In this document: positions 13,934-47,778 of the stretch, piece by piece
Position numbering within the stretch: position 1 is the first letter of the stretch
Layout: every line of letters begins with the position of its first letter
Assembly (NCBI GenBank): GCA_963625935.1
Contig: CAVFVD010000009.1
Location: forward strand, 4,094-68,093
Length of the DNA: 64,000 bases
Source: an uncultured Oscillospiraceae bacterium
GTDB taxonomy: Bacteria; Bacteroidota; Bacteroidia; Bacteroidales; Bacteroidaceae
Direction: 5' to 3'
The notes under the pieces: generated by a model
Seen by the model: only the letters and a program-made list of their open reading frames with translations
The model's database searches: none
What the model was told of the DNA's origin: nothing
Made by a program: the position numbers and the translations under genes

Positions 13934-16717
13934 TCACCTCATCTTGCCGCCGAACCTCGGCAGCACCTCCGCCGAAAAGCCCGACAAGGTCTCGTCTATG
14001 CAGAGCCAAGTGGTGTACAGCAAGCGGAAATACTTGTACGGCGTGCCGCTGAAGCCGCGCATATAATGCCCCTCCGCCGCCCAAACCGGGTGCCAGTCCC
14101 TGCCGCGCAGGTCGTTCGTCCCGTAAAGCACTTGCTTCTGCTCTCTGCCGTTCGCCTCGTTCCACCCGATGGCGCGGAAATCGCCGCGCTGCGCCAACTC
14201 CGATATGGTCTTGCGCGTGTCGGGCGCGCCGAACTTGAACGGGCGCGTCAAGAGGAACATCCTGCTCTGCGCGTTTATGGGGACATCCCTGTCTTGGTCA
14301 ACGCTCAGGTTAAGCACCACGCCGTCCCTTTTCTGCGCGATACATTCCGGGTAGGAGTTGATGTCAAACAAATACGGGTTGTCGCACATTCCCCAAGAGC
14401 GCGTCCGCAGCGAATACACATAGGCGTACTGGTGTTTTGTGTTGTACACCGTCACGCGCTGGTGCGCGTAGTCGTACATAAGGTTGCAGTCCGTGAGGTA
14501 GTCGGCGAACGCCGCTATTTGGAAGCTGTCCTTGCCGAGGAGCTTGCACGCTCCGGGCATTTCGCCCAAGTCAAGCGTCCCGAAGTTGTCAAGCATTTCG
14601 CTCACGCATTCCACGCTTGACCCGCTGACGTGCATAATGCCGCGCTCCGTGGCGAAAAGCACGCTCCCGTCAAGCTGCGCCACCGCGTCTTGCCCAAGGC
14701 ACACGTCACGCGCGAACGGCTGCTTTGACGAGAAGCCGCCAGTTGACGAGGTCTCCAACGCCCACACGCCGTCCGAACACAAGGCGTATAGCGGGAACTG
14801 TCCGAACTGCCCTTGCGACAACGCCTTTGCAGCCGATGTCACGCTGATGATTTCTCCCGCGCCGATGGTGTTGATGTTCGTCACGGGGAACATAAACGGG
14901 TTGTTCACCTCGGACGTGTACAGCTTGTTCGGGACGCTCATCTCCACGCTTGCGGAAATCACCTCCGGCTCTTGGGTCGTCCCCGGTATCGGCCTGTCCC
15001 CTACGTTCTGCGCTTCGTCCGCCCATCCGTCCATGCGCCCGTGCAGCCCGTCAAAGAAATACGAGCCGTTGAGGAATTTGTGGCGCGTCAGTTTCGCACA
15101 ACGGGAGCGCGTGTGTTGCACGTTGCCGTCCTTGTCCATCATCTCCTCAACCACCATCACTTTCTTCGCGTACGGGCTGTGGTGGTAGAACCACACAAGC
15201 GGAGTGTACCACCCCGCATTCGTCCAAGTGCCGCACTGCACAAGTTGCTCCGCCCCGCCGTCCGGCTCTATCCACACATACACGCTCACGCGGCACGGGT
15301 CGTTGTAATTGTCCGGGGCGTGCAGCGGTGTTTCCGCGCCGCCGTTGTAATGCACGCACCCGTCCGTGTGCGGGAAAAGGCATCGCGCGGACGCGCCCTT
15401 GTATATGCTCTTCTCTATGTTGTAAAGGTTCATCCGCGAGTTGTACGCCACCGCCCCTCTCGGGCGCAGCTCATCGTGGCTGTCGTAGTCGTCCGTCATG
15501 ACCTCGCGGTTCAGCAAAGACTGCAAATAGTCGTCCGCCACATCCACTTCCACCCTCTCGCCCTGCTTCAAGTCGTCAAGGGATATGCTGCTCAAAAGGA
15601 AGAAATTGGATGCTTCCGTAAAGCCCTTTTTCACCTCATCGTCACCCTTCTGCGGAAGCGAGCAATATGTGCCTGTCGGCGCATAAGGTATGTGCCGCGC
15701 GTAAACGACCTCTTGCTTGGTACTCGTGTTGCCGCTCGCGCTTGTCGTCTGCACGAGTGCGGAAGCCCTGTACACGCCGTAGTGCATGCGTTGCGAGTCC
15801 CACCCGTTGGTCAAAGGCTCAACGCGGTTCGTGAACTCGCCGCCTTGGTCATAGTACCTGATGCCCTCGGTGACGAAAATGTCCACGCTCTGCACGATGT
15901 CCGCCCATTCTTTCAGCTTGGCAAGACCGTCTGTAACCTGCATATCCAGTTTCGCCACCACGGCACTTGTGGTGAATGTCAGGAACTGGTAGCCATCGTC
16001 TTTTTTCCTCCACTCCCCCTTGACCATCGGCACGAAGCCCGCGTTCGGTATCATAAGCACGGGCGCGGAGTGCATTGTCAGCGTGCCGTCAAAAAGCCGG
16101 AATGCATAGCGCACAAAGAAAGGGAACATGAATTTCCCTTTCTTCGTAGCGTAATTGGCAATAAACTTGTTCGCAGCCGATTGCGCGGCGAGCTTTCCCT
16201 CGTCTATAACTACCGAAGCAAAGTAAGTGCCTTTGTCATAATATTTATACGGATTTTCCTCTATCTGCTGCTCCACCGTTCCGCGCAGCCCGAACGATAT
16301 GCCCAGCTCCGGCAGATGGCTGCCAAGAGCTTTGTACGCATCGCTCTTCCAAAGGTAGTAGTACGGCTTGTGCGTGGTGTCCTCAATAAAGAGGAGCGTG
16401 TTACCAAGCACCGTGATGCGCCCCGGACCGCCGACTTGCCCTATCACGTTAAGCACCGCCCTGCTCCCGTCCTCCGTTTCCGTCCAGCAAAGCTCAAAAT
16501 TCCCGTTGACGACAATGTAGTGCTTGAATTTCGCGGTCTCGTGCACCGCCAATATTTTGCAGTCGCTGTCTAACCTCATGACGCACTCCCCCTTCAGCAC
16601 GGGGCGCAGCCCGCCAACGTCCGGGACGGCGTTCATGCACACCGACAGCTCGCCGTCCGTGCAGAGCCTGTCGGGCGTGGCGGACGTGACCCCGCCGTAA
16701 CCCACCTCTTGTCTCAT
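13934..16717 (-). CDS. Large hypothetical protein (927 aa), possibly virion-associated
   Basis: Long clean track ORF. I recognise no catalytic motifs. Confidence 0.85.
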   Translation of the reverse strand: MRQEVGYGGVTSATPDRLCTDGELSVCMNAVPDVGGLRPVLKGECVMRLDSDCKILAVHETAKFKHYIVVNGNFELCWTETEDGSRAVLNVIGQVGGPGRITVLGNTLLFIEDTTHKPYYYLWKSDAYKALGSHLPELGISFGLRGTVEQQIEENPYKYYDKGTYFASVVIDEGKLAAQSAANKFIANYATKKGKFMFPFFVRYAFRLFDGTLTMHSAPVLMIPNAGFVPMVKGEWRKKDDGYQFLTFTTSAVVAKLDMQVTDGLAKLKEWADIVQSVDIFVTEGIRYYDQGGEFTNRVEPLTNGWDSQRMHYGVYRASALVQTTSASGNTSTKQEVVYARHIPYAPTGTYCSLPQKGDDEVKKGFTEASNFFLLSSISLDDLKQGERVEVDVADDYLQSLLNREVMTDDYDSHDELRPRGAVAYNSRMNLYNIEKSIYKGASARCLFPHTDGCVHYNGGAETPLHAPDNYNDPCRVSVYVWIEPDGGAEQLVQCGTWTNAGWYTPLVWFYHHSPYAKKVMVVEEMMDKDGNVQHTRSRCAKLTRHKFLNGSYFFDGLHGRMDGWADEAQNVGDRPIPGTTQEPEVISASVEMSVPNKLYTSEVNNPFMFPVTNINTIGAGEIISVTSAAKALSQGQFGQFPLYALCSDGVWALETSSTGGFSSKQPFARDVCLGQDAVAQLDGSVLFATERGIMHVSGSSVECVSEMLDNFGTLDLGEMPGACKLLGKDSFQIAAFADYLTDCNLMYDYAHQRVTVYNTKHQYAYVYSLRTRSWGMCDNPYLFDINSYPECIAQKRDGVVLNLSVDQDRDVPINAQSRMFLLTRPFKFGAPDTRKTISELAQRGDFRAIGWNEANGREQKQVLYGTNDLRGRDWHPVWAAEGHYMRGFSGTPYKYFRLLYTTWLCIDETLSGFSAEVLPRFGGKMR

Positions 16718-16740: not shown

Positions 16741-16956
16741 TCAGTATTCTTTCCGCGAGCGGAACGACACCGTTTCAACGTGCAAAAATGACATTGTCCC
16801 CGCTATCTCGTCCTTATGTTGCTCCGCCTCCTCCTTGGTGCGGAAGATGGTGGCGCAGATTTCCGTCCGCGCCGTGCCTTTGGTCGCTATGATGTTGGCG
16901 TAGTACTTGCGCCCGAGGATGAAAGCGACTATCTCCTCAAATACCGTTGTGTTCAT
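16741..16956 (-). CDS. Hypothetical 71-aa protein
   Basis: ATG at 16956 (MNTTVFEEIVAFILGRKYY...). The track version starts at an upstream GTG. Confidence 0.5.
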   Translation of the reverse strand: MNTTVFEEIVAFILGRKYYANIIATKGTARTEICATIFRTKEEAEQHKDEIAGTMSFLHVETVSFRSRKEY

Positions 16957-16982: not shown

Positions 16983-17147
16983 CTACGTCCACACATGCAC
17001 GATGTGCGGCACCGTGTTGCTAAGCCCGTCCGCGCCCTTGAAGCCGCCCATGAACGATGTGACCGCATTGGCTATATCCTTGCGCGGGCGGGCTGAAACT
17101 CCGCCAGTGCCGTCCCGCACCCATCCTATGTAGTGCTTCCTATTCAT
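16983..17147 (-). CDS. Micro-ORF 6 (54 aa)
   Basis: MNRKHYIGWVRDGTGGVSARPRKDIANAVTSFMGGFKGADGLSNTVPHIVHVWT. Its ATG overlaps the preceding stop (TATGAATAG). Below the track length cutoff. Confidence 0.4.
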   Translation of the reverse strand: MNRKHYIGWVRDGTGGVSARPRKDIANAVTSFMGGFKGADGLSNTVPHIVHVWT

Positions 17148-17289
17148 AAGCCACCAGCACTATTGTGTGCTGCCCGTGGTTGTCACGCAGCCCACCCCAA
17201 GCGTCATAGCGCGAGGAGAGTGCCGTGGTGTACAGCTCCCGCGCGTGGAGCTGCATGTACCTTTTCACGAAAGGTGTCTGTCTCTTCAT
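17140..17289 (-). CDS. Micro-ORF 5 (49 aa)
   Basis: MKRQTPFVKRYMQLHARELYTTALSSRYDAWGGLRDNHGQHTIVLVAYE. ATGA overlap with micro-ORF 4. Confidence 0.4.
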   Translation of the reverse strand: MKRQTPFVKRYMQLHARELYTTALSSRYDAWGGLRDNHGQHTIVLVAYE

Positions 17290-17453
17290 AACTCTACTGC
17301 GACATAATAATGGTTTCTTGAACTCACTCCCGCGAGTATCGTGTATATAACGCCCGTCCCGCTCCTGCGGTTGTATGTGTCCACCCACACCGCGTGCGCG
17401 GGGCGGAAGCCGTCAGCGTACATTCGTTCCAGCCTTGCGTTCTTCCTTAGCAT
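17286..17453 (-). CDS. Micro-ORF 4 (55 aa)
   Basis: MLRKNARLERMYADGFRPAHAVWVDTYNRRSGTGVIYTILAGVSSRNHYYVAVEL. Starts two codons after the stop of micro-ORF 3. Confidence 0.4.
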   Translation of the reverse strand: MLRKNARLERMYADGFRPAHAVWVDTYNRRSGTGVIYTILAGVSSRNHYYVAVEL

Positions 17454-17459
17454 ATTCAG

Positions 17460-17582
17460 TCAGTATGTACCCCCCCCGTTGCGCGTTGTGACAGTTTGCG
17501 ACACGCCGCCAACGCCCATCACGTTGCCGTCAAAACCCGCACGCCACACGGGGTAAAAGATGTTGCCAATCTTCTCCGTCAT
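17460..17582 (-). CDS. Micro-ORF 3 (40 aa), ends just after a G8 tract
   Basis: MTEKIGNIFYPVWRAGFDGNVMGVGGVSQTVTTRNGGGTY. ATGA overlap with the G7-frame stop of micro-ORF 2. Confidence 0.4.
   Translation of the reverse strand: MTEKIGNIFYPVWRAGFDGNVMGVGGVSQTVTTRNGGGTY
17470..17477 (-). repeat. G8 homopolymer (C8 on plus strand), tract 3
   Basis: Read directly: AACGGGGGGGGTACATAC on the coding strand. Confidence 0.95.
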
Positions 17583-17729
17583 GCGAACTCCACAATTACG
17601 CAGGTCGCGCTGAAGCCGTCCGCCTTGGTGAAGAGGAAATTCCGCGTCCCCATCTTGAAATACCCCGCCCTGACGGTCTTGCTCGCCCCCCCCTATGGCG
17701 GGGTTTATCACGCTCTTCTTAGTACTCAT
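17579..17729 (-). pseudogene. Micro-ORF 2, out of frame at a G8 tract (in frame with G7 or G10): frameshifted, phase-variable, or a homopolymer assembly error
   Basis: ATG at 17729 gives MSTKKSVINPAIGGG. After the tract, the G/C-third-position frame reads ASKTVRAGYFKMGTRNFLFTKADGFSATCVIVEFA-stop, but it is closed by a TAG just upstream of the tract. Confidence 0.35.
17686..17693 (-). repeat. G8 homopolymer, tract 2
   Basis: Read directly: CCATAGGGGGGGGCGAGC on the coding strand. Confidence 0.95.
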
Positions 17730-17907
17730 ACAAAACAACAGTCATAGGGTAATGCGCCAATGTGAGAATGTTGGTCGCGCCGCAAAACTCGTACCGCGTG
17801 GTGATTGTAGCGGCGCACATTCCGTTCGTCACATTCACCGCCCTCCGCGTACCCCCCCCATTGTCAAGCGGTTGCGGCGGTGCTACGCGTGTCAGTCGGA
17901 AGTACAT
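17719..17907 (-). CDS. Micro-ORF 1 (62 aa), contains a G8 tract and overlaps the methyltransferase stop
   Basis: MYFRLTRVAPPQPLDNGGGTRRAVNVTNGMCAATITTRYEFCGATNILTLAHYPMTVVLYEY. Confidence 0.4.
   Translation of the reverse strand: MYFRLTRVAPPQPLDNGGGTRRAVNVTNGMCAATITTRYEFCGATNILTLAHYPMTVVLYEY
17852..17859 (-). repeat. G8 homopolymer, tract 1
   Basis: Read directly: GACAATGGGGGGGGTACGCGG on the coding strand. Confidence 0.95.
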
Positions 17908-19217
17908 TCCTTGCGGTTTAGGTTGTCGTAGTACTCATAGTGGAAGCCCTCGCCGACTTTCAGCGCGCCGCCCTCCTTGAACCGCGCGTAAGCCAAGCGG
18001 AACTCGCCGTCCATAAGAAGAGACAAAGCCGCCTGCGCTTCCGCCGCAGTCTTGTCCCAAAGCCCGTACCCGCTCATTGCCCTTTGCAGCCACGTTTTGA
18101 GGAACATCGCGTCCTCGTGGCGCGGCGGTATGTCGTATTCCACAAACAGCGCATCGTCCTTGTCGTTCGCTTTGAGGAACTTTTCCACCGCCTTGTCTTT
18201 GAGGAAAAACCGCTCTTCCACGTTGTCCTCCAACACGTCCGCAAGACGTTTGTCAAGCGCAAAAGGCTCGGGGAACTTGTAGTCAAACGCCACATCCTTG
18301 CGCATTGACACGCAGAATACACGGTCCCTGTTCTGCGGCACGCCGTAGTCCTTTGCGTTGAGCTTCGCCCATCTGTTGACGTAGCCGAGACTTTCAAGGC
18401 GTTTCAGCCACAATTGGAAGTCGGGCATGAACTTTGCGCTGACCAGCGCGGCAACGTTCTCTTGCAAAAGGAACTTTGGCTTCAAGGCTTCCACCGCGTC
18501 CGCCACGTTCCAAAGCAAGGCGGAGCGCGTGCCTGCGCCCTCTGCCATTCCCATTTGCTTGCCCGCTTGGCTGATGTCTTGGCACGGCGAGGAATAGGTG
18601 AACAAGTCCACCTCGCGCCCGCCAAGGCTTTCCTTGACCGCGTTCCAGTCTATCTGCGTGATGTCGCCGAGAGCCTTGTCCGCGAACTGCGGGAAAACAA
18701 GGTCGTGCATTTGGCACGCGTACTTGTCTATCTCGCTCCACCCCGCGCACGTCCATTTGAAATCGGGGTGTTTCTCTCGCAGCGCGTCCGCCGCCATCAG
18801 TTGCGAGTCGTAGCCGCTGAACGTGGTGAGGAACACCTTTTCGCCCTTGTTGCCGTCAACGGGCATTGGCGGAAGCGCGTCTTCCGGGTAGAGCGCGTCA
18901 AGCAAGGACATTTGCCCTTGCGGCGCGTTCTCTTTCGGATACCACAGCTGTTCGTAGATAGCCGCAAGCACGTCCACTACGATAGAGTTTCCCGCCATCT
19001 TGTACTGCTGCGAGACGGAAACCGCCAAGTCCCCCTCCTTGCCTTTGCCAACGGGCTTGCAGTCCGCCAGCCTTTCGCGTGCTTGGCGCACGCTGCTCTG
19101 CATAGTGGCTATGACATCGTCCCGCACGCCCATAAGCCGGAAGCACTCTTTTGGCGTGAGCTTGCGCACGGCGTAGCTCTTAATCGTGCGGTCTTTGAAG
19201 TTGATTTTCGTCACCAT
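17892..19217 (-). CDS. DNA (cytosine-5) methyltransferase with permuted motif order (IX-X before I-VIII)
   Basis: RKLTPKECFRLMGV and MAGNSIVVDV lie near the N-terminus. FSGYDSQ, SSPCQDISQAGK, LLQENV and PQNRDRVF follow. Confidence 0.9.
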   Translation of the reverse strand: MVTKINFKDRTIKSYAVRKLTPKECFRLMGVRDDVIATMQSSVRQARERLADCKPVGKGKEGDLAVSVSQQYKMAGNSIVVDVLAAIYEQLWYPKENAPQGQMSLLDALYPEDALPPMPVDGNKGEKVFLTTFSGYDSQLMAADALREKHPDFKWTCAGWSEIDKYACQMHDLVFPQFADKALGDITQIDWNAVKESLGGREVDLFTYSSPCQDISQAGKQMGMAEGAGTRSALLWNVADAVEALKPKFLLQENVAALVSAKFMPDFQLWLKRLESLGYVNRWAKLNAKDYGVPQNRDRVFCVSMRKDVAFDYKFPEPFALDKRLADVLEDNVEERFFLKDKAVEKFLKANDKDDALFVEYDIPPRHEDAMFLKTWLQRAMSGYGLWDKTAAEAQAALSLLMDGEFRLAYARFKEGGALKVGEGFHYEYYDNLNRKECTSD

Positions 19218-28645: not shown

Positions 28646-29398
28646 ATGCAAGTTTACAAGTCTTTAAACGAGTTTCTAAAGAGCAATAATGTAGGACAGC
28701 AAGAGGTCGCCCAGCTTTTGGGCATCGGGCAGTCGTATGTAAGTCAAATGCTGAACGGGAAGAAACCTATCGGGAAAAGCAAGGCGGATATCCTCTCAAA
28801 AAAATATGGGCTTTCCAAATTGTGGCTTCTAACCGGCGAGGGCGAAATGTTAGCCAACCCCACGGAACAGGACAAAGTCCTTATCGCGAGCAACAACACC
28901 TACGGGGATAATGCGAGCGGCAACAACAATGTGACAATAAATAATAATGCCCCTCGCGCGGAGAAGAGAGAGACGGGCGCGGGCGTGCAGCTCCGCCCAG
29001 TGGTTACAAAGGAGCTGGCTTCGCGCCCCGACACAGACGTGTATATGGTGGTCAAGGACGGCGCGGCGGGAAATCTTAACACGATGGTTTCAATCCCGCC
29101 TTACAACAACTTTGATTTTTACTACCAAGTAAGGCAGGACGCAATGGAACCGTTGTACCGACAAGGCGAGGTCGTGGCACTCGCGCACCTTGACCCCGAC
29201 GCGGACATTATACAAGGCGCGGCAATGGTGGTTGACACCAAGGACTTCGGCTTCGTCCTCCGCAACGTGTACGACCGTGGGGACTACTACGAGTGCCGCT
29301 GCGTCAATAAGGATAGCAAGTTTGAGTCGCAGAATATCAGCAAGGAAAAGGTTATCCGCCTTTACCGAATTGTGTACACCGTCAGATTGGGGGACTGA
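28646..29398 (+). CDS. Phage repressor: XRE-type HTH plus S24/LexA-like C-terminal domain (catalytic residues apparently substituted)
   Basis: QQEVAQLLGIGQSYVSQMLNGKK at the N-terminus. The C-terminus has VRQDAMEPLYRQGEVVAL in place of the usual GDSMEP motif. Confidence 0.8.
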   Translation: MQVYKSLNEFLKSNNVGQQEVAQLLGIGQSYVSQMLNGKKPIGKSKADILSKKYGLSKLWLLTGEGEMLANPTEQDKVLIASNNTYGDNASGNNNVTINNNAPRAEKRETGAGVQLRPVVTKELASRPDTDVYMVVKDGAAGNLNTMVSIPPYNNFDFYYQVRQDAMEPLYRQGEVVALAHLDPDADIIQGAAMVVDTKDFGFVLRNVYDRGDYYECRCVNKDSKFESQNISKEKVIRLYRIVYTVRLGD

Positions 29399-30510: not shown

Positions 30511-30933
30511 TCAATCGTAAAAGAAACGCCGTTTGATGTTCTTTGAGAACAGCCTTGACCCGCGCACGCTGTCAAGTATTTCTTGCAGATGCTCGTCTTT
30601 CAAATTGTCAACAAGCTCAGTCTCGTTGCGCTCAAATTCGCCAGCAAAGTCACTTATACTCTTTGTGTGTATGTCAGACGCGCACACAAACGAGTCGTGG
30701 TGCAGGAACGAATAATCCCGCTTCCTCAAAAGGTATTGCATTGCAAATTGTTCGGGCTTGCGTTCAAGCACTGGATTTATGCGTGAGTTTATAAAGAAGA
30801 AGCCTGCAACCTCGTCCCCGTCCACGCCCATCACAACAAAGAACTTTCCGTGGTCTATTTCGCTAAATGCGTATGAGTGAAGCACCGCGCCGCGTCTGAC
30901 GCCAAGTCGAACTAATATTTCATTCGGTTTCAT
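30511..30933 (-). CDS. Candidate toxin partner of the Panacea antitoxin (140 aa, family not recognised)
   Basis: The ATG at 30933 overlaps the upstream stop in ATGA. MKPNEILVRLGVRRGAVLHSYAFSEIDHGKFFVVMGVDGDEV... Confidence 0.5.
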   Translation of the reverse strand: MKPNEILVRLGVRRGAVLHSYAFSEIDHGKFFVVMGVDGDEVAGFFFINSRINPVLERKPEQFAMQYLLRKRDYSFLHHDSFVCASDIHTKSISDFAGEFERNETELVDNLKDEHLQEILDSVRGSRLFSKNIKRRFFYD

Positions 30934-31514
30934 CCGTGCGCCATCTGCTTTTTGAGTCTCACCCCGTCCGCCACATATTGCGCGTATTCCTCGGTGTCCC
31001 CGCACTCCATTACCATATCCTCAACGGTCATGCAAGAGTTAAGCCCCGTGTTTTCCCACGCAAAGCCATGCGACCTGTCTGTCAGTTGCGCAAAATTCAA
31101 TCCTGCATACTTGTCGAATACCTCATCAAGGCACTCCGTGTCAGTCTCCGAGAGATAGTCCTCGTCGCAAGCCGCTTTCGCTTTTATAAGGCTCTTGTTT
31201 ATATAAAGGAACAAACTCCCCGCCTCTGCAAGGCTTTCTTTCGGAAAGAAGAAAGACGCGCCATTAAGTGCCTTAAACATATCGTACACGTTGGACGGGA
31301 CTGGCCCGTACCGCATCGCAATATAATCGTCCCCCGTAATGGAACGCCCATACCTTGACAATGAAAGTTGGTCTGCAAAATAGAGCAACTTGCAAAGTTT
31401 GTGAATGTCGCAGGTGTTATCCTTGAACTTTCCCAAAAGGTAAAGCAAAGCGTTGTACGCTTCGTTCTTCTTGAAAATCGTTGCCATATTCCTTGCGTTA
31501 AATAATTCCGCCAC
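30930..31514 (-). CDS. Panacea (DUF4065, SocA/GepA-like) domain antitoxin
   Basis: LYLLGKFKDNTCDIHKLCKLLYFADQLSLSRYGRSITGDDYIAMRYGPVPSNVYD. The start may instead be the second ATG at 31487. Confidence 0.7.
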   Translation of the reverse strand: MAELFNARNMATIFKKNEAYNALLYLLGKFKDNTCDIHKLCKLLYFADQLSLSRYGRSITGDDYIAMRYGPVPSNVYDMFKALNGASFFFPKESLAEAGSLFLYINKSLIKAKAACDEDYLSETDTECLDEVFDKYAGLNFAQLTDRSHGFAWENTGLNSCMTVEDMVMECGDTEEYAQYVADGVRLKKQMAHG

Positions 31515-32144: not shown

Positions 32145-33314
32145 ATGGATGGCAAGCTATCCCTGAAAGGCTGGCTCGCACTCGCCGGCCTGGCCTGCTC
32201 GGCTTTCGTCTTCAACACCTCGGAGTTTATACCCATCGGACTGCTCACCGACATCGCGGCCGACTTTCACGTCACCGAAGCCCGCGCCGGTCTGCTCATC
32301 TCCGTATACGCGTGGATGGTGGCGCTGCTTTCCCTGCCGCTCATGCTCGCCTGCTCGAAGATGAACCTCCGCACGCTGCTGCTTTGGGTGGTTTTTCTCT
32401 TCGCCTTTTTCCAAGTGTGCTCCGCCCTCGCGCCGGGCTACTACGCCCTAATGTTTGCCCGCATCGGCGTGGCCTGCACCCACTCCATCTTTTGGTCAAT
32501 CGTCTCCCCTCTTGGCGTGCGCATCGTGCCGCCGCGCAACAAAGCGCTCGCCCTGAGCGTCATTGTCACGGGCTCCGCCATAGCGATGATATTCGGGATG
32601 CCGCTCGGACGCGTGATAGGTCTGCACATCGGCTGGCGTGCCACGTTTATGAGCATCGGCGGCGTGTCGCTGCTCACCTTCCTCTACCTGCGCCACGCGC
32701 TTCCCTCCGTCCCCAGCCGCGGCGGCTTCGCGCTGAAAAAGCTGCCCTCTATGGTTTTCGACCCGCTCTTGCTGCGCATCTACCTTTTCACGCTGCTCAT
32801 AGCCACGGCGTACTTCACGGGGTACAGCTACATAGAGCCATTTCTCAAACAGACCGCCGGATTTGCCGACAGCCTCGTCACCGCCACGCTTATGGTGTTT
32901 GGCGCGGCGGGCCTGGTGGGCAGCGCGCTCTTTTCCAAGCTCTACACGAAAGCCCCGGGGCTTTTCGTCACGCTCTGCACGCTCGCGCTGTGCCTGTGCC
33001 TGCTGGCTCTGCTTCCGCTTTCGGGAAGTATGCCCGCCGAGGTGGCGGCCTGCGCGGTATGGGGCGCGGCAGCGACAGCGTTCAACGTGGCTCTGCAGTC
33101 GCAAATTATAGCCTGCACGCCGCCCGAAGGCACGGCGGTGTCTATGTCCGTATACTCCGGCATCTTCAACCTCGGCATAGGCAGCGGCACGCTCTTCGGC
33201 GGCATTGTCTGCACCTGCGCCTCCATCTCCTACATAGGCGTGGCCGGCGCGGTGATAGGTCTGCCCGCCGTGCTTTACTGGCATCTGCGCACGTCGCGTA
33301 TGCTTGTGCGCTGA
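32145..33314 (+). CDS. MFS transporter, sugar-efflux (SotB/SetB-like)
   Basis: About 12 predicted TM segments; N-terminal FNTSEFIPIGLLTDIAADFHVTEARAGLLISVYAW. Confidence 0.8.
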   Translation: MDGKLSLKGWLALAGLACSAFVFNTSEFIPIGLLTDIAADFHVTEARAGLLISVYAWMVALLSLPLMLACSKMNLRTLLLWVVFLFAFFQVCSALAPGYYALMFARIGVACTHSIFWSIVSPLGVRIVPPRNKALALSVIVTGSAIAMIFGMPLGRVIGLHIGWRATFMSIGGVSLLTFLYLRHALPSVPSRGGFALKKLPSMVFDPLLLRIYLFTLLIATAYFTGYSYIEPFLKQTAGFADSLVTATLMVFGAAGLVGSALFSKLYTKAPGLFVTLCTLALCLCLLALLPLSGSMPAEVAACAVWGAAATAFNVALQSQIIACTPPEGTAVSMSVYSGIFNLGIGSGTLFGGIVCTCASISYIGVAGAVIGLPAVLYWHLRTSRMLVR

Positions 33315-33370
33315 CAAAAACGGAAGGCGGCGGCACGCAATGGGACGGACTTTCCGCTGTTTAAGGAAGG

Positions 33371-33725
33371 CTTGCACTATCTCTACATAAGACAGGCGGC
33401 GGCTCGGCGCTTGAAAGTCAGAAGTCTGCGACTTTTGCCTTTCAAGTGCACTCGCCTTGCACTATCTCTACATAAGATAGGCGGCGGCTCGGCGCTTGAA
33501 AGTCAGAAGTCTGCGACTTTTGCCTTTCAAGTGCACTCGCCTTGCACTATCTCTACATAAGATAGGCGGCGGCTCGGCGCTTGAAAGTCAGAAGTCTGCG
33601 ACTTTTGCCTTTCAAGTGCACTCGCCTTGCACTATCTCTACATAAGATAGGCGGCGGCTCGGCGCTTGAAAGTCAGAAGTCTGCGACTTTTGCCTTTCAA
33701 GTGCACTCGCCTTGCACTATCTTTG
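33371..33725. repeat. 85-bp tandem repeat, 4 full copies plus about 15 bp; each unit contains a strong hairpin
   Basis: Units start at 33371, 33456, 33541, 33626 and 33711. Only one substitution (gacagg vs gatagg). Hairpin: CTTGAAAG..AAGTC-TGC-GACTT..CTTTCAAG. Confidence 0.95.
33718..33725 (+). promoter_or_regulatory. -7 box TATCTTTG 13 nt upstream of the tamB ATG (in the last, partial repeat unit)
   Basis: Full repeat units carry TATCTCTA at the same place. The -33 position reads TTTC. Confidence 0.4.
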
Positions 33726-33737
33726 CATACCTAAGCT

Positions 33738-36700
33738 ATGAAAAAGGAAACCGTAAAGGCGACAAAGTGGATCGCGGGCGTGATATGCGCCCCCTTCGCG
33801 CTCTTTCTGCTGCTCGCCATACTGCTTTATATACCCCCCGTACAAAATTTCGCCGTGCAACGGGTAGCCTCCGCGCTCTCCTCCTCAACTGGGACGGACT
33901 TCAGCGTGGAGCGCGTGCGCCTGGCCTTCCCCCTCGACCTTGCCATACACGGCGCGAGGGCGACAGAGAAAGGCGACACGCTGCTCGACGCGAAAAGCCT
34001 TAGGCTGAGCGTGCGGCTGCTGCCGCTCTTCGAGGGACGCGCCGACGTGGACGGCTTCGAGCTGCGCGGAGTGAAGATAGACAGCAAGAGCTACGTTAGC
34101 GACACGCACATTAAGGGACACGCCGACTGTCTCAGCGCCACCGCGCACGCCATAGAATGGGCGAAAGAGAGCGTGCGGCTTGACAAGGTGCAGCTGAGCG
34201 GGGCGGACTTTGACATCGCGCTCAGCGACACGGCGAAGAAAGACACGACGGAAAGCACGGCGAAGTGGGTCATAGCCTTGGGCACGGCAGATTTGAGCAA
34301 CTCCGCAGTGAGGCTGTCTATGCCCGGAGACTCTATGCGCATAGCGGCGCAGATAGGCCAAGCGAAACTGCGCGGCGGCTTGTTTGACACGGGCAAAAAC
34401 GCCTATTCGCTCAAAAGCCTCGCCCTGCGCGACTGCGCCGTGAGCTACGACCTGCCCTACGAGAAACCGGAAACGGGCTTAGACGCTAACCACATCTCCC
34501 TCACAGACCTTTCGCTCGTAGCCGACACCCTCTCATACAGTGGCGAGGGCGGCATGCGCGTCGCGGCGGGCATAAGGAAAGCCGCGCTGAAAGAGAAATG
34601 CGGACTGCACGTGACGGACTTCGGCGGCGGGGTTGCGCTCCGCGACTCGCTGCTCTGCCTTTCCAAGCTGCGGCTATACACCCCCCACTCAAAGATAACC
34701 GCTGACGCGTCCGTGCCGTTTGACGCGTTTACCCCGAAAGGCAAAGGCGTGTGCAAGGCGGACATCGGCGCGGAGATAGGAATGGAGGACGTGCGCACGC
34801 TTGGGAAAGGATTTCTTCCCAAGCAGTATCTGAAAGCGCTTCCCCCAACGCCCGCCACGCTGCAGGCCAAGGCGCACGGCAATTTGCGCCGCGCCGCAAT
34901 CGAGCAGCTTAGCCTCGCGCTGCCCGGTGTAGTAAAACTCACGGCAGAGGGTTACGCCGCGTCACCATTAGAAGACTGGCGGCGCGGCGAAGCCACGTTT
35001 GCGCTCACCACGGGACGGCTTGCGCCGCTGCGCCGCCTGATGCCGTCCGCCCTGCGCCGCTCTTTTGACATCCCCGACGGGACGGCGGCAAAAGGCAAAA
35101 TAAGCTTCAACGGCTCATACTACGCCACCGACCTGCGCCTTACGGCACGCGGCGGCTCGCTCGCGGCGAAAGCGCACGCCGACACACGCAAGGAGACATA
35201 CAGCGCCAACATCGCGGCAAAAGCGTTCCCCGTAGCCGCCTTTGTGCGCGGCTTGGACGCGACGGCGTTCAGCGGGCGCGCCACGGCGGAGGGCATTGGC
35301 TTCGACCCGCTATCAAGCCGCTGCCGCCTGACGGCGGACGCGCAAGTCACGCGCTTTGCCTACGCCAAATACGACCTTTCCGGACTGTCGCTGCAAGCGC
35401 GGCTGCGCGACGGACAAGCGAAGTGTGTTTTCCACTCCCCCAACGAGACTCTCCGCGCGGACGGCACGCTGCTGGCCACAATAGGCAAACGGCGGATAGA
35501 CGTAGGGCTGCAAGCCGACATCCCCGGCATTGACCTGAGGGAAATAGGCGCGACGAAAGATTCGCTCGTCTTCGGCACCAGCATAGACCTGCAAGGACAC
35601 ACCGACCGCGCCTTCACGGCATACGGCGTAAGCGGCAGCCTGCGGGCAAACCACTTCACCACGCCGAAGCGCAGCATGATGGCGAAAGACCTTGACTTCG
35701 CTTTCGAGACTTCGCGCGACACTACCACAGCGCGTATTGCGGCCGGCGACCTCACCCTGCGCCTCGGCGCGGAAGGCGGACTTACGCGCATCACGGAGGC
35801 TTGCGGCCGCATCGCCACCGAACTCACGGCTCAGGCCGAACGGCGCTCAATCGACCAAGAGCGGCTCAAAGAGCTGCTGCCCGCCGCCTCGCTCTACCTC
35901 GAAGCGGGACAGGACAACCCGCTCTACAACGTTGCACGCTTCAAAGGCTACTCGTTCTCCTCGGCTTACCTCAACCTGAACACCGACCCGCACACCGGCA
36001 TGACGGGAGCGGCACGCGTGGGCAGCATAGACCTCGGCAACCTGATGCTTGACACCATCGACGCCCACATCGTGCAGGACACGACGGGCGTGCAGCTTTA
36101 CGGCGTGGTGAAGAACTACAAAAAGACCAACCCCACGCCTTTGGAGGTGCGGCTCAAATCGTACATCCTCTCCTCGGGCGCGGGCGTGGACCTCACATAC
36201 CTTGACGAAGAGGGAGAAACGGGCGTGAACCTCGGGCTGCAAGCAAACGTGGTGGAAGACGGACTGAGCCTGCATCTCTATCCCGAACACCCCGTGCTGG
36301 CTTACCGCAACTTCCGCGTGAACACCGACAACTACATTTTCCTCGGAAAGGACAAAAGCATAAAGGCAAACATCGATCTGCTGGCAGATGACGGCACCGG
36401 GCTGCAGATATACGACACTCCCAACGACAGCCTTAACGACATCACCGTGAGCGTAAGGCAAGTGAACCTCGCCGAGCTTTCCACCGTGATGCCCTACCTG
36501 CCGCACCTCGGCGGAAAGCTGGACGGCGACATTCACGTCACGGCAAATCCGCGCACGGAGCAAATCTCGGCAATGGCGTCGCTTGACGCAGAGGGCTTCA
36601 AGTATGAGGGCACGGATCTGGGCAACGTGGGCGTGGAGGCGATATACCTCCCGAAAGGCGGGGGAGAGCATCACGCCTCGGCTTTCATAAGCTCCAACGG

Positions 36701-38330
36701 CGAGGAAGTGCTCGCCTGCAACGGCACATACCACGACACGCCGGGAGACGGGGACGGCACGTTTGAGGGTAACGCGCAGCTGCACGACTTCCCCCTGCAA
36801 ATGCTCAACGGGATGCTCAACGGCACGGACGTTGCGCTCAACGGCATCGCGAAAGGCGACCTCAGCGTGAACGGGACGCTCGCAAAGCCTGTCCTGAACG
36901 GCAGTCTCGACCTCGACGAGGCGCACATTTACTCGGACGTGTACGGCTTCGACTTCCGCACCGACGAGCGGGCGGTAGAGATAAAGGACAGCCGCTTGCT
37001 TTTCAAGGAATACAACCTCTACTCCACGGGCAAGCAGCCGCTTGTGCTGGACGGAGAGCTGGACATGGCGGACTTCAGCCGCATTGGGCTGGACTTCACG
37101 ATGAGGGCGCATAACTTTGAGCTTATCAACACGAAGAAGAAAGCCAAGTCGATGGTCTTCGGCAAAGTGTACGCCAACTACAACGGCACGATGAAAGGCA
37201 CGGCGGACAACATCTATATGCGCGGCAAACTGGAAGTGCTCGACCGCACGGATGTGACTTATATCCTCAAAGATTCGCCCCTCTCCGTCGACGACCGCTT
37301 GCACGACCTTGTGCAATTCGTAGACTTCGCCGACACTACCGCCATGGAAGAGGCGAAGACTGCGGCTGAAGGCGGCTTTGACATGACGCTCGGTATCTCG
37401 GTAAGCGACGCCGCGCAGTTCCACTGCAACCTCAGCGAGGACGGGCAGAGCTACGTCAACATTGAAGGCGGCGGCGACCTCACCATGCGTATGACGCAGC
37501 AGGGAGACACGCGCCTCACGGGCCGCTTCACCGTCAACAGCGGCGAAATGAAGTACGCCCTGCCGGTCATTCCCTTAAAGACTTTCCAGCTGGTGCAGGG
37601 AAGCTACGTGGAGTTTACGGGCGACATGATGAATCCTACGCTTAACATCACGGCGAAAGAGCGCACGAAAGCCGTTGTCACCGAAAACGACCAGCAGCGC
37701 TCGGTAAACTTCGACGTGGGCGTACAACTGACGCAACCGCTTGACAAGATGGGGCTGGAGTTCACCATCGACGCGCCCGAGGACCTAAACGTGCAGAACC
37801 AGCTCGCGGCAATGTCGAAAGAGCAACGCGGAAAGGCTGCCGTGGCAATGATGGCCACGGGCATGTATATGACGGACGAAAGCACAATGTCGGGCTCGGG
37901 CTTCAAGGCAAGCAACGCACTGAACGCTTTCCTGCAAAGCGAGATACAGAACATAGCGGGCACCGCGCTGAAGACTATTGACATTAGCCTCGGCGTAGAG
38001 AACGGCACGTCGGAGACCGGCACAAGCACGACGGACTACTCTTTCCAATTTGCCAAGCGCTTTTGGGGCAACCGCATCAGCGTGATACTCGGCGGAAAGG
38101 TCAGCACCGGAGCCGACGCGCAGAACACTGCGGGCAGTTTCATAAACAACGTCTCCGTAGAGTACCGCCTCGACCAAGGAGCGTCGCGCTACGTCAAGGT
38201 GTTCTACGACCGCGACACGCAGGACCCGTTGGAAGGTCAGCTGACAAAGGGCGGCGCGGGACTTGTGCTGCGGCGCAAGACCGACCGTCTGGGTGAGTTG
38301 TTCCTCTTCAAAAGGAAAAGCGGGAAATGA
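33738..38330 (+). CDS. tamB: Translocation and assembly module protein TamB (DUF490 family)
   Basis: 1,530 aa with an N-terminal TM anchor and a C-terminal YRLDQGASRYVKVFYDRDTQDPLEG segment, followed by an Omp85 gene. Confidence 0.8.
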   Translation: MKKETVKATKWIAGVICAPFALFLLLAILLYIPPVQNFAVQRVASALSSSTGTDFSVERVRLAFPLDLAIHGARATEKGDTLLDAKSLRLSVRLLPLFEGRADVDGFELRGVKIDSKSYVSDTHIKGHADCLSATAHAIEWAKESVRLDKVQLSGADFDIALSDTAKKDTTESTAKWVIALGTADLSNSAVRLSMPGDSMRIAAQIGQAKLRGGLFDTGKNAYSLKSLALRDCAVSYDLPYEKPETGLDANHISLTDLSLVADTLSYSGEGGMRVAAGIRKAALKEKCGLHVTDFGGGVALRDSLLCLSKLRLYTPHSKITADASVPFDAFTPKGKGVCKADIGAEIGMEDVRTLGKGFLPKQYLKALPPTPATLQAKAHGNLRRAAIEQLSLALPGVVKLTAEGYAASPLEDWRRGEATFALTTGRLAPLRRLMPSALRRSFDIPDGTAAKGKISFNGSYYATDLRLTARGGSLAAKAHADTRKETYSANIAAKAFPVAAFVRGLDATAFSGRATAEGIGFDPLSSRCRLTADAQVTRFAYAKYDLSGLSLQARLRDGQAKCVFHSPNETLRADGTLLATIGKRRIDVGLQADIPGIDLREIGATKDSLVFGTSIDLQGHTDRAFTAYGVSGSLRANHFTTPKRSMMAKDLDFAFETSRDTTTARIAAGDLTLRLGAEGGLTRITEACGRIATELTAQAERRSIDQERLKELLPAASLYLEAGQDNPLYNVARFKGYSFSSAYLNLNTDPHTGMTGAARVGSIDLGNLMLDTIDAHIVQDTTGVQLYGVVKNYKKTNPTPLEVRLKSYILSSGAGVDLTYLDEEGETGVNLGLQANVVEDGLSLHLYPEHPVLAYRNFRVNTDNYIFLGKDKSIKANIDLLADDGTGLQIYDTPNDSLNDITVSVRQVNLAELSTVMPYLPHLGGKLDGDIHVTANPRTEQISAMASLDAEGFKYEGTDLGNVGVEAIYLPKGGGEHHASAFISSNGEEVLACNGTYHDTPGDGDGTFEGNAQLHDFPLQMLNGMLNGTDVALNGIAKGDLSVNGTLAKPVLNGSLDLDEAHIYSDVYGFDFRTDERAVEIKDSRLLFKEYNLYSTGKQPLVLDGELDMADFSRIGLDFTMRAHNFELINTKKKAKSMVFGKVYANYNGTMKGTADNIYMRGKLEVLDRTDVTYILKDSPLSVDDRLHDLVQFVDFADTTAMEEAKTAAEGGFDMTLGISVSDAAQFHCNLSEDGQSYVNIEGGGDLTMRMTQQGDTRLTGRFTVNSGEMKYALPVIPLKTFQLVQGSYVEFTGDMMNPTLNITAKERTKAVVTENDQQRSVNFDVGVQLTQPLDKMGLEFTIDAPEDLNVQNQLAAMSKEQRGKAAVAMMATGMYMTDESTMSGSGFKASNALNAFLQSEIQNIAGTALKTIDISLGVENGTSETGTSTTDYSFQFAKRFWGNRISVILGGKVSTGADAQNTAGSFINNVSVEYRLDQGASRYVKVFYDRDTQDPLEGQLTKGGAGLVLRRKTDRLGELFLFKRKSGK

Positions 38331-38368
38331 CATAAGTCTCGCATCCGTTTAATCCGAATTTCTCCGCA

Positions 38369-40882: not shown

Positions 40883-40944
40883 GATTACGCACAGACTCCC
40901 TCGGCACGCTCACCGACTTCGTAAGCAGTATCCCTACAAAGCAG

Positions 40945-41125
40945 CAAGCTCACACCACAAACGCGCAAGCGCTCTCCGCGAAACTGCGAGCACACACCGC
41001 GAACCCGCAAGCACACCTTGCGAACCCGCAAGCACTCTCCGCGAAGCTGCGAGCACACACCGCGAAACCGCAAGCACACCTCGCGAAACCGCAAGCACTC
41101 TCCGCGAAGCCGCGAGCACACGCCC
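40945..41125. repeat. Imperfect 21-bp repeats with 63-bp higher-order period (CGCGAAnnnGCnAGCACnCnC)
   Basis: Read directly. The repetitive ORFs listed on both strands here are artefacts of the repeat. Confidence 0.85.
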
Positions 41126-41309
41126 CAAAGTTGGAAAGCACGCCCGCGCCACAGCTTACGCGCGAGCCCAAGACAAGGCATACAAAAAGCCCCCGCACGG
41201 ACAACTCCGCTCGGAGGCTTATACTTTTTCCCTATTCGTCTCTCCCCAAAAAGTTTCTCCCAAAGAAGAGGAGCGAACCTACAAGGAAGAAATAGCGGGA
41301 AGCTTCAAA

Positions 41310-41615
41310 CTAGACCTTGATCTCAACCTCTACGCCGCAGGGCAGCTCGAGCTTCATCAGAGCGTCCACAGTCTTGGCCGTAGAGCTGTAGATGTCGATA
41401 AGGCGCTTGTAGGAAGAAATCTGGAACTGCTCGCGGCTCTTCTTATTTACGAAGGTAGAGCGGTTAACAGTGATGATGCGCTTGTGCGTGGGAAGGGGGA
41501 TGGGACCGCTTACGATGGCACCAGTCGCCTTTACGTTCTTCACGATCTTCTCTGCGGATTTCTCCACGAGCGTGTGGTCGTAGCTTTTCAGCTTGATACG
41601 GATTTTCTGACTCAT
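41310..41615 (-). CDS. rpsJ: 30S ribosomal protein S10
   Basis: [25 protein letters not shown]... Confidence 0.97.
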
Positions 41616-41707
41616 TGTGTTTTGTTGTTGTGATTATTCCCCCGTCCCCTTTCGCCATAAGAGTCATTCGTTATGCGCGGGGTTGGCGGAGGGATGTTGT
41701 AGTTTCT

Positions 41708-41776
41708 TGGAAAAATTCCGTAGGAGAACACGGCTTCGCCCTATCCCAGCCGGGACAAGCCGCGGCTGTGTTCTCC
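41708..41776 (-). terminator. Large hairpin with U-run between fusA and rpsJ (terminator or attenuator)
   Basis: GGAGAACAC ... GTGTTCTCC stem, followed on the minus strand by UACGGAAUUUUU. Confidence 0.4.
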
Positions 41777-41792
41777 GTAAGAAGTTTTGTCT

Positions 41793-43913: not shown

Positions 43914-43935
43914 CTTTTGTTACCTGCTCAGGGGG

Positions 43936-44412
43936 TTAGAATCTGAAGTGTGCGAAAGCGCGGTTAGCCTCGGCCATGCGGTGCATGTCCTCCTTGCGCT
44001 TGTACGCGCCGCCCTGCTCGTTGTAAGCGTCCATAATCTCGGCTGCGAGCTTGTCGGCCATGGTCTTGCCGCCGCGCTTGCGTGCGTAGCCAATCATGTT
44101 CTTCATCGAAACGGACTCCTTGCGGTCGGGGCGTATCTCCGTAGGCACCTGGAAGGTTGCGCCACCGATGCGGCGGCTCTTAACCTCCACCAGCGGGGTG
44201 ATCTTCTCGAGTGCGGTCTTCCATATTTCGAGCGCGCTCTTTTCCTGATCCTTCATCTTCTCTCCTACAATCTCGAGGGCCTTGTAGAAGATGGAGTACG
44301 ATATGGACTTCTTGCCGTCGTACATAAGGTGGTTAACGAACTTGGAAACCTTCTGGTCTCCGAAGACGGGATCGGGGAGGATCACACGCTTCTTAGGCTT
44401 TGCTTTTCTCAT
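43936..44412 (-). CDS. rpsG: 30S ribosomal protein S7
   Basis: [30 protein letters not shown]... Confidence 0.97.
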
Positions 44413-44620
44413 TTGTTTGTTGGTTTGGTTGTTTGGGGCTGCGCTCAGTCTTCAACCTCCCGCTCTCGCAGGCGTTTACTCAACCGCGGCAACCAAAGTT
44501 TCTTTTCCTGTGTCGCCCGCCCGTGGCGGACTTTCCGGCGCGAGGGCTTTACACGGAGTTTGGGAATCGCCCTGCGGCCGCACAGCCATTCCCAAACTCC
44601 TTAACCCTCATTCCGCCTTT

Positions 44621-45004
44621 TTACTTCTTGCCAGCCTTGGGGCGCTTTGCTCCGTACTTGGAGCGGCGCTGCGTGCGGTTAGCCACGCCGGCGGTATCAA
44701 GCGTACCGCGCACGATGTGGTAGCGCACACCCGGAAGATCCTTCACACGACCGCCGCGCACCAGCACAATGCTGTGCTCCTGCAAGTTGTGACCTTCTCC
44801 GGGGATGTAGGAGTTAACCTCCTTGGAGTTGGTCAGGCGCACACGCGCCACCTTACGCATAGCGGAGTTAGGCTTCTTAGGCGTGGTGGTATACACACGC
44901 ACGCACACCCCGCGTCGCTGGGGGCAGGAATCCAAGGCCGGCGACTTGCTCTTGTCAGCCGCAACCTGTCTGCCCTTTCTTACCAATTGCTGAATAGTAG
45001 GCAT
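44621..45004 (-). CDS. rpsL: 30S ribosomal protein S12
   Basis: [12 protein letters not shown]...[13 protein letters not shown]... Confidence 0.97.
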
Positions 45005-45460
45005 TTAGTTTTGATTTTGATTTATGTTGTATGTATTTTTATTTCTGCTTTTAGCGGTGCGAAAAGTATACACTACACCTTTCGGGCGGCAAAGTTAGTC
45101 TTTTTTATCCTAACCCGCAAGCATCCCCGCGCTTATTACGGAAAGAAAAGAGCAAGCTGCGGACGTATGCGAAACGCCGGACAAAATCGGCGAACGGGGT
45201 GCAAGCGCACGACGAAGTTAGGAATCGCCCCGAGCCCGCTTACATTACATTCTAAACGTATACGCATTATATATATTGCGTCGTTCGTTATTGGGAGGAA
45301 AACGTCTCCACAACCCCAAACCCACACGAAACGGAAACACTAAGCGCACCCCGGCCTACCATCCGCCAAACCGAGCGCAAGAAAAGTGTATTTATGCGGT
45401 ACGAATCCCGTTCTCCGCACCCCCAAGCCACACCCCGCGCCGTCAGGATACCGAGCGGCG

Positions 45461-47731: not shown

Positions 47732-47778
47732 ACGACCACGCGCGACCGGAACAATACAGAACATACCATATATATAAT

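Follow-up and report, generated by a model that had tools for sequence, protein, structure and literature searches.

What could three runs of eight guanines be doing within 390 bp of one another, each inside a very short open reading frame (ORF), beside a gene for a DNA methyltransferase? The question is raised by a 64,000-nt stretch of contig CAVFVD010000009.1 (positions 4,094 to 68,093; assembly GCA_963625935.1), which we call the window. An earlier note had read these G8 runs as the mark of slipped-strand phase variation, or of slippage during expression, that could switch which peptides are made, and the variation in run length that we find among relatives of the window supports that reading. 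Based on sequence comparison, we propose that the array of mini-genes holding the runs is probably, with real room for doubt, the specificity array of a split multispecific phage cytosine-C5 DNA methyltransferase (C5 methylase), in which a circularly permuted catalytic core would be accompanied by six small target recognition domain (TRD) modules and the G8 runs would act as hypermutable switches for three of the six.

Three G8 tracts in six overlapping mini-genes

The tracts were found again at exactly the positions first reported, on the coding (-) strand at 17852-17859 (tract 1), 17686-17693 (tract 2), and 17470-17477 (tract 3), and they appear as C8 on the + strand. The claim that no comparably long run exists elsewhere also stood: these are the only G or C runs longer than six in the 64-kb window, where three A7 runs occur at other places. 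Their contexts are AAT-G8-TAC, ATA-G8-CGA (tract 2), and AAC-G8-TAC, which bears out the context AA(T/C)-G8-TAC described for two of them. Re-derivation of the frames placed every tract on Gly-Gly-Gly codons, as had been stated: tract 1 encodes the GGG of DNGGGT in mini-gene A, tract 2 that of AIGGGA in mini-gene B, and tract 3 the GGG near the C terminus of mini-gene C. Spacings of 160 to 210 nt between the tracts, and the codon-phased Gly motif in which every one of them lies, led us to reject a G-quadruplex reading.

These three mini-genes belong to a row of six (45 to 62 aa) on the - strand between the core gene and a gene for a 927-aa protein, and each start overlaps the preceding stop. 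Mini-gene A (17719..17907; 62 aa), which shares its first 16 nt with the end of the methylase gene, is ON with its G8; a further ATG at 17860-17862 abuts tract 1 and is in frame with G9, giving a 47-aa short form of A that is an intact ATG ORF in relatives L004 to L006 and resembles short members of the family. Mini-gene B (17579..17729) is frameshifted and thus OFF. As the earlier note had it, tract 2 parts the N-terminal MSTKKSVINPAIGGG from ASKTVRAGYFKMGTRNFLFTKADGFSATCVIVEFA, which sits in another frame (the downstream segment is also given as ASKTVRAGYFKMG...VEFA, out of frame with MSTKKSVINPAIGGG), and G7 or G10 joins the two into an ORF of 49 or 50 aa that ends ...VIVEFA and whose stop overlaps the next ATG in ATGA. 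The 50-aa ORF is intact in L004 to L006 and is called as a gene in L005. With G8, a reading from the start codon of B instead crosses a junk linker and enters the frame of mini-gene C, again in agreement with the note. Mini-gene C (17413..17582) is OFF and truncated at 17460; one more G, giving a 9-nt tract, lengthens it by the predicted 20 or so codons to a 56-aa ORF with the tail YILTEYA, which is called in six relatives, including L001, L004, and L049. The other three mini-genes carry no tract, so that the state of the window is A ON, B OFF, and C OFF: mini-gene D (17286..17453; 55 aa, ending VAVEL) and mini-gene F (16983..17147; 54 aa) are intact, and mini-gene E (17140..17289; 49 aa, ending LVAYE), which overlaps D in an ATGA, is tractless in this lineage. 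In relative L051, an 18-nt in-frame insertion near window position ~17000, at the 3' end of ORF-F, gives a module F of 60 aa.

The ON frames of all six mini-genes show purifying selection in comparisons of the window with the L007 lineage, the proportion of nonsynonymous differences (pN) being 0.16 to 0.38 and that of synonymous differences (pS) 0.63 to 0.86, which is saturated; pN/pS is 0.2 to 0.5, also in B and C despite their broken frames in the window. Mini-gene A has a full-length orthologue in L007 (4298-4486; 70% amino acid identity; pN 0.20, pS 0.86), and mini-gene D one in L009 (4944-5111; 80% identity; pN 0.16, pS 0.80); the values for B against L007 are pN 0.32 and pS 0.77, and those for C are pN 0.32 and pS 0.63. 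Orthologues of E occur in L007, L009, L014, L015, L021, and L024, and those with a G7, G8, or G9 run at codon ~18 in L009, L012, and L020, the L012 copy being frameshifted. The A family extends to 27 clusters (50% identity, among 1.84 billion representatives), all of them free-standing proteins of 45 to 95 aa with end-to-end matches. Judged by these patterns, the mini-ORFs are true protein-coding sequences. Clustered at 90% identity, module D is grouped with an EAL-domain protein of 711 aa from Devosia, which probably reflects an error of clustering in the protein collection.

Diverged relatives (L007 to L024), with methylases 58 to 71% identical, carry arrays of up to nine intact ORFs of 45 to 63 aa at the same position. 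Consecutive mini-ORFs overlap by 8 nt at 26 of 34 junctions and by 4 nt at 5 of 34; in the window, each module has its own ATG and stop, the overlaps are 4 to 8 nt, and the frame changes from one module to the next. Stop/start overlaps of 8 or 4 nt are the arrangement expected for translational coupling. Among L007 to L012, similar cores are accompanied by 2 to 9 modules in differing combinations, suggesting that cassettes come and go quickly, perhaps through recombination at the stereotyped 8-nt stop/start junction (...GAATATGATTGA...). Mini-ORFs are also found upstream of the permuted core (L014:1620-1754, L019:3533-3979, L020:1394-1540, L021:2723-2857, and L022:3832-3978); in several loci they end ~10 to 20 nt before the core start, and several carry G7 to G9 tracts.

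Tract lengths differ among near-identical relatives

The earlier note had proposed comparing tract lengths in related genomes, and the comparison was positive: lengths differ at all three tracts among about 20 contigs from different samples and assemblers that are 95 to 100% identical to the window over the region. Tract 1 is G7 on 6 contigs, G8 (the ON length) on 7, G9 on 4, and G10 on 2. Measured between anchors, tract 2 spans 20 nt on 6 contigs, 21 nt on 10 (window included), 22 nt on 1, and 23 nt on 3, with 20 or 23 nt being ON, and tract 3 spans 16 nt on 1 contig, 19 nt on 6, 20 nt (ON) on 12, 21 nt on 2, and 22 nt on 1. The alleles of tract 3 are G5, G8, G9, G10, G11, GGGAGGGGG, AG8, and AG9, and GGGAGGGGG, present on several contigs, is an interrupted ON allele. 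With 4 to 7 alleles per tract, the lengths vary independently of one another: 7 of the 8 ON/OFF combinations of the three tracts occur among the relatives (L059, like the window, has A ON, whereas L056 has A and B ON and L049 has B and C ON), and one flanking single-nucleotide polymorphism haplotype is found with different tract lengths.

Across 17 aligned sequences of the 1.25-kb array, the three tracts hold the only frameshifting indels, the other indel being one 18-nt in-frame insertion; over the wider 9.3 kb, other indels either keep the frame (multiples of three), span gene-sized blocks, or are short and lie well upstream of the array. As in a contingency locus, an in-frame homopolymer sets the reading frame, and both ON and OFF alleles exist among near-identical genomes. 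We therefore hold with strong confidence that the tracts are hypermutable and frame-switching.

The core is a permuted C5 methylase in which no TRD is recognisable

The gene at 17892..19217 (- strand) encodes a catalytic core of 441 aa that matches PF00145 (E = 2.3e-52) at profile positions 22 to 217. This match covers only motifs I to VIII, and motifs IX and X lie at the N terminus. All the motifs by which a C5 methylase is recognised (I, IV with PCQ, VI with ENV, VIII with QxRxR, IX, and X) are present, with the sequences FSGYDS, SPCQDIS, ENV, QNRDR, RKLTPKECFRLMGV (motif IX), and AGNSIVV (motif X). When the two halves are rejoined in the conventional order (residues 123-441 followed by 2-95), the PF00145 match becomes one stretch, 22 to 302; the core is therefore circularly permuted, with motifs IX and X ahead of I to VIII as in the M.BssHII type.

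In neither of the places where a TRD would be expected in the same chain could one be recognised. Between motifs VIII and IX of the conventional order there is none: the segment past motif VIII is without the T-[LIV] or Gly-loop signature of a TRD, and a helical extension stands there instead. Nor is there an N-terminal TRD of the M.BssHII type, as the protein begins 18 residues ahead of motif IX, and our TRD library gave no match to the core. One relative, L025, does carry N-terminal TRDs in one chain with a permuted core. The C-terminal extension of the window core comprises ~85 aa (residues ~355-441; window 17892-18150), and its counterpart in an AlphaFold2 (AF2) model of a related natural core-TRD fusion is helical with a predicted local distance difference test (pLDDT) score above 90. 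Foldseek searches with this model returned M.MpeI, M.HhaI, and M.HaeIII, which is the C5 methylase fold again. The core also has a strand, ALFVEYD, that resembles the tail of a TRD and is followed by the ~85-aa extension, conserved across the family as MFLKTWL...; the extension may serve as a platform for docking or, by autoinhibition, hold the place of a TRD tail.

Core homologues of ~438 aa number more than 7,900, mostly from gut metagenomes, with some labelled Caudoviricetes. Two side observations concern the core gene itself. In L014 (3062-3069), a C8 run at Thr-Pro-Pro of motif IX is in frame, and in L015 (3062-3070) the corresponding C7 followed by AC is one base longer and frameshifts the gene, and poly-C in these core genes may turn the entire enzyme ON and OFF as a master switch. 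A fused core-TRD homologue, P0225 (843 aa), contains Hint, LAGLIDADG, and intein-splicing domains and, by this domain content, is an intein-interrupted phage methylase.

The mini-proteins resemble TRD modules

Four lines of evidence, namely, homology to TRDs of relatives, a match to the methylase of phage SPR, natural fusion to the core, and co-occurrence with the permuted core, lead us to regard the mini-ORFs as very likely to be the TRD modules of the adjacent C5 methylase. With respect to the first, diverged mini-ORFs carry T-[LIV]-T, GN[IL], and Gly-loop signatures, nearly all have tails of the form hydrophobic-hydrophobic-E-Y-D/E or VAVEL, and they cluster into 18 families. In tblastn searches, the family library found TRD segments within the methyltransferase coding regions of L026, L027, L029, L040, and L045, relatives of canonical motif order, and of L025. 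The segment in L040 is 62% identical to a mini-ORF family (E = 9e-15), that in L045 is 50% identical to mini-gene B, and L026 has three different mini-ORF families in the same reading frame as motifs IX and X; the mini-gene D family also matches a TRD segment in L039. The methylase frames of L029 and L045 are themselves broken by poly-G tracts.

With respect to the second line, a search of 50,697 phage records with the in-frame form of ORF-C matched only multispecific methylases of the SPR/SPbeta type (E = 0.7, with 42% identity across 98% of its length). Pairwise alignment places ORF-C end to end, at 43% identity, on residues 255-296 of M.SPRI, the first TRD of that enzyme, and the terminal AVEY aligns as well. 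The three TRDs of M.SPRI end KIAVEY, AVVEV, and VAVGEY directly before motif IX, and the mini-ORF tails ILIEYD, VAVEL, and VLYEY parallel them. A tblastn search of the same phage records with ORF-F gave no match; a word-indexed protein search, a type unsuited to remote homology, gave three close matches to it, and a blastn search of the locus against these records returned a single 49-nt match, in another methylase.

The other two lines come from gene arrangement. In the sister subfamily represented by L013, the core and an F-type module form one 486-aa protein by in-frame fusion at the C terminus, and ~30 protein clusters of 479 to 491 aa span the whole of this fusion. Every permuted-core locus examined (the window, L001 to L017, and L019 to L024) has one TRD module or more beside it; some mini-ORFs lie just upstream of the core, the second position that makes sense topologically for a domain normally found between motifs VIII and IX. 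As in a multispecific methylase, then, the modules stand in tandem, six in number, with homology both to TRD segments in relatives and to TRD1 of SPR; they depart from the single-polypeptide form of such enzymes in that each has its own ATG and stop codon.

A proposed split enzyme with switchable specificity modules

How might these parts work together? In the mechanism that we propose, the catalytic core would be made without a recognition domain, and the mini-proteins would be translated by coupling from the transcript of the core. Each mini-protein would supply the recognition loops and a C-terminal β-strand (hydrophobic-hydrophobic-E-Y-D/E) leading into motif IX, docking in trans on the N-terminal strands of the core and so completing the DNA-binding small domain. 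Every ON module would then confer one sequence specificity, and a cell would contain a mixture of holoenzymes. Slipped-strand mispairing in replication would shift a tract by ~1 nt at high frequency and toggle single modules, so that populations of phage or lysogens would be mixtures of methylation phasotypes. Such mixtures could hedge between escape from restriction enzymes that cut unmethylated sites and avoidance of methylation-dependent (type IV) nucleases.

Assembly from parts has precedent, since C5 methyltransferases split next to the TRD, naturally (M.AquI) or artificially, complement efficiently (PMC5944983). Strict co-occurrence of modules with the core, natural fusions, and overlapping stop/start codons lend a split enzyme indirect support. 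We lean slightly towards accepting that the mini-proteins are trans-acting subunits and that their phase variation is adaptive.

Alternative explanations

Several results weigh against the split, switchable methylase. The core might act without partners, given its own tail-like ALFVEYD strand and helical extension. The match to SPR is weak at the level of the database, a Pfam search of the mini-ORFs returned nothing, and a phmmer search of two mini-proteins against PDB sequences gave only spurious low-complexity matches. Real and shuffled mini-ORFs placed in the de-permuted core gave similar PF00145 scores (180 to 184 bits), as the profile does not model the TRD. In the AF2 model of the natural core-TRD fusion, built on a 42-sequence alignment, the mean pLDDT was 64.9 and that of the TRD was below 50, and the model therefore carries no docking information. 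The tract lengths come from consensus assemblies, and we infer the translation of the mini-proteins, their binding in trans, their specificities, the switching rate within populations, and the selective rationale. Finally, the number of G8 runs is not significant by itself: three were observed where 1.95 +/- 1.8 are expected, and 36 of 100 dinucleotide shuffles reached three or more, so that we rejected the count alone as evidence. What is unusual beyond the count is that the three cluster within 390 bp (~1e-4 by the analytic estimate 3(d/L)^2), lie on one strand, and all fall on Gly-Gly-Gly motifs of paralogous mini-genes.

If the tracts do change length, do they do so to any purpose? It is possible, though unlikely, that the mini-genes are or once were TRD genes but that their poly-G tracts are simply mutation-prone stretches on conserved Gly-Gly-Gly and that OFF alleles represent ordinary loss in dispensable modules. 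The ON fractions, ~1/3 to 1/2 per tract, are near the expectation for drift on a hotspot, which speaks against adaptive switching; moreover, conserved GG(G) protein motifs account for G-rich codons at these sites, and interrupted, stabilised alleles such as GGGAGGGGG exist in some relatives. Neutral decay is, however, at odds with the continued purifying selection in the ON frames and with the recurrence of frame-restoring lengths (G7/G10; G8, G5/G11) with no further decay. It also leaves codon choice unexplained. Among the Gly codons of the large ORFs of the genome, GGC makes up 53 to 70% and GGG 10 to 18%, and none of 12 runs of at least three Gly is all GGG; in such Gly runs of the TRD mini-ORFs, GGG dominates with 45% and GGC falls to 2%. 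Runs of at least seven G (rarely C) number 36 in 20.7 kb of TRD zones compared with 22 in 343 kb outside, which is ~27-fold denser with the window lineage counted once, and 13 of the 22 outside runs sit in arrays of more distant relatives that the TRD library had missed.

The homopolymers are, furthermore, kept or recurrent at homologous sites although synonymous divergence is saturated. A tract occurs in at least one lineage in 12 of the 18 families, at the same family-specific Gly motif and across methylase identities of 49 to 71%: equivalents of tract 1 (A type, G7 to G9) are found in the diverged relatives L011, L019, L020, and L023, equivalents of tract 2 (B type, codon ~13, G8) in L014, L015, L019, and L045, and an equivalent of tract 3 (C type, G8) in L024; L022 has a G13 tract. 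The non-permuted L028, with 42% GC, has eight G7 to G9 tracts in 1.2 kb between the N-terminal catalytic half and the C-terminal half. Since disfavoured, mutable codons have been kept across saturated synonymous divergence, the retention of the tracts argues for selection on mutability, without proving it.

Very unlikely, in our judgment, is recoding at the level of expression, in which RNA polymerase slippage or ribosomal frameshifting would produce both frames from any allele; the length in the DNA would then be of little consequence, and the tracts would set product ratios or make fusions such as B N terminus-linker-C. Runs of 8 to 11 identical bases can provoke transcriptional slippage. 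With G8 at tract 2, the start of B reads free of stops into the frame of C, and in the non-permuted L028 (3944-6399), L029, and L045, the motif I to VIII half is followed by tract-broken TRD modules and then by the motif IX to X half, an arrangement in which, from the order of the pieces, tract length is what decides which of them fuse. Against recoding, heritable length variation is observed in the DNA and suffices to explain the frames; no slippery heptamer or stimulatory structure was seen, though no search was aimed at them, and the junk linker frames lack a conservation signal beyond that of the ON frames, the only frames analysed.

That the lengths are sequencing or assembly errors around one true, frame-restoring length per tract, the mundane counterpart of hypermutation, we consider extremely unlikely. 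In its favour, several platforms are prone to errors in poly-G, coverage is low for several contigs (4 to 6x by their names), and a second assembly, L059, which matches the window exactly, may derive from the same reads. Error is nevertheless a poor explanation because an identical allele triplet recurs in three separate samples (L004, L005, and L006), L059 repeats the state of the window, and the range of lengths, G5 to G11, covers 6 nt. Disagreement persists among contigs of 10 to 22x coverage from differing assemblers (names in the style of SPAdes, MEGAHIT, Logan, and JGI), GGGAGGGGG and AG8 involve substitutions and not length miscalls, and the absence of other frameshifting indels from the 1.25-kb array also stands against this explanation. 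It is hardly credible, lastly, that the mini-ORFs are not separate subunits and serve instead as silent cassettes for recombination into an expression site, or as one multi-TRD chain made by +1 frameshifting at the junctions: stereotyped junctions, the changing module sets of the similar phages L007 to L012, with their hint of cassette exchange, and the existence of single-chain multi-TRD relatives would fit, yet every module retains an ATG of its own and selection acts on its N-terminal region, the families occur as free-standing ORFs, window junction codons such as TAC-TAA and GCA-TGA are not slippery, and the window core ends in a stop codon of its own and lacks a TRD that could mark an expression site.

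Relation to known systems

The closest parallels to the proposed split methylase are M.SPRI, M.phi3TI, M.rho11sI, and the SPbeta enzyme, which are likewise phage encoded and contain tandem short TRD modules, one per target in their case. The hydrophobic-E-Y tail common to the modules of the window is also seen in M.SPRI, and it precedes motif IX in the Bacillus enzymes. Unlike these methylases, in which the TRDs lie in one chain between motifs VIII and IX, the window has its modules as separate overlapping ORFs, its core is circularly permuted, and several of its modules carry poly-G tracts; to our knowledge, no such tracts have been reported for the multispecific Bacillus phage methylases. 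The order of motifs, with IX and X ahead of I to VIII, is that of the M.BssHII and M.Alw26I type, and in naturally permuted C5 enzymes like M.BssHII the TRD stays on the catalytic chain, at its N terminus (PMC5944983). Activity from separate polypeptides split in the variable region is documented for M.AquI and for engineered fragments of M.SssI and M.MpeI (PMC5944983). M.AquI, however, is divided once into two large halves (α and β), whereas the ~50-aa TRD proposed here would be detached on both sides and exist in six alternative copies.

With the type III mod phasevarions and type I hsdS genes, the locus has in common a length-variable tract inside a gene of a methylation system; in the type I system NgoAV, a poly-G tract in hsdS reportedly decides on the inclusion of a TRD. 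In phase-variable type I and III systems generally, a repeat tract shifts its length by slipped-strand mispairing and thereby alters the sites that are methylated (PMC12707154). Those systems are cellular, modify adenine, and usually have one switch, in contrast to a phage C5 methylase with several independent switches, each of which would gate its own specificity subunit. Among phages, hypermutable homopolymers that give frameshift variants as bet-hedging are known as contingency loci: the receptor-binding proteins of Fletchervirus have poly-G contingency tracts (Sorensen et al. 2021, as referred to in bioRxiv 10.1101/2025.10.21.683753), loci of this kind were recently described in T2 and T4, and a poly-G tract in the methylase gene of Bordetella phage BPP-1 was noted, not studied (bioRxiv 10.1101/2025.10.21.683753). 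These loci serve host recognition or other functions and are not arrays of specificity mini-genes. A literature search, whose coverage was not exhaustive, returned no description of free-standing TRD mini-gene arrays or of their gating by homopolymers. The locus thus combines known kinds of element and could amount to more if trans-acting subunits are confirmed: as a tentative claim, which we doubt slightly more than we believe, it would stand as the first example of a C5 DNA methyltransferase whose TRD subunits (~50 aa) are dissociable, program a TRD-less core in trans, and in individual cases have a poly-G gate of their own.

Genomic setting and biological significance

The left part of the window is phage-like, with RecE, RecT, a replication initiator, MazG, and a helix-turn-helix (HTH) repressor, and beyond ~32 kb there are bacterial genes (major facilitator superfamily transporter, TamB, Omp85, EF-G, and subtilase; 32145-49218), which together point to a prophage in a diderm host. 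Near the apparent prophage-host boundary lie the gene for the HTH (cI-like) repressor (28646-29398) and one with a SocA/Panacea antitoxin domain (30930-31514). No tRNA genes were found in the window. The 927-aa protein (13934-16717) is conserved (phrog_32516, E = 1e-195) and has no assigned function; its gene directly follows the array in all close relatives and shows a 3-nt length polymorphism at an A run near 16004. Between it and module F lies a 71-aa ORF (MNTTVFEEIVAF...; 16741-16956) that is not TRD-like and is conserved in close relatives.

With thousands of core homologues, the architecture looks widespread in gut and rumen phages, to judge from the collections searched, and annotation systematically misrepresents it: mini-genes are passed over or broken up by gene callers, and frameshifts give the look of pseudogenes. 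If our reading of the locus is true, the core would be programmed much as type I systems are by HsdS, to which the modules are unrelated, and the methylation repertoire would be combinatorial, heritable, and yet reversible, with 2^3 states here and more in relatives with up to 8 or 9 tracts. A natural ~50-aa DNA-recognition domain that acts in trans on a C5 methyltransferase would also be relevant to programmable cytosine methylation. Phage methyltransferases are a main route of escape from restriction, and little is understood of how a phage keeps up with the very diverse restriction systems that gut bacteria carry. A core with plug-in modules that are gained, lost, and singly switched would be a compact answer to that diversity, and it could explain part of the mosaic 5-methylcytosine patterns seen in microbiome methylomes.

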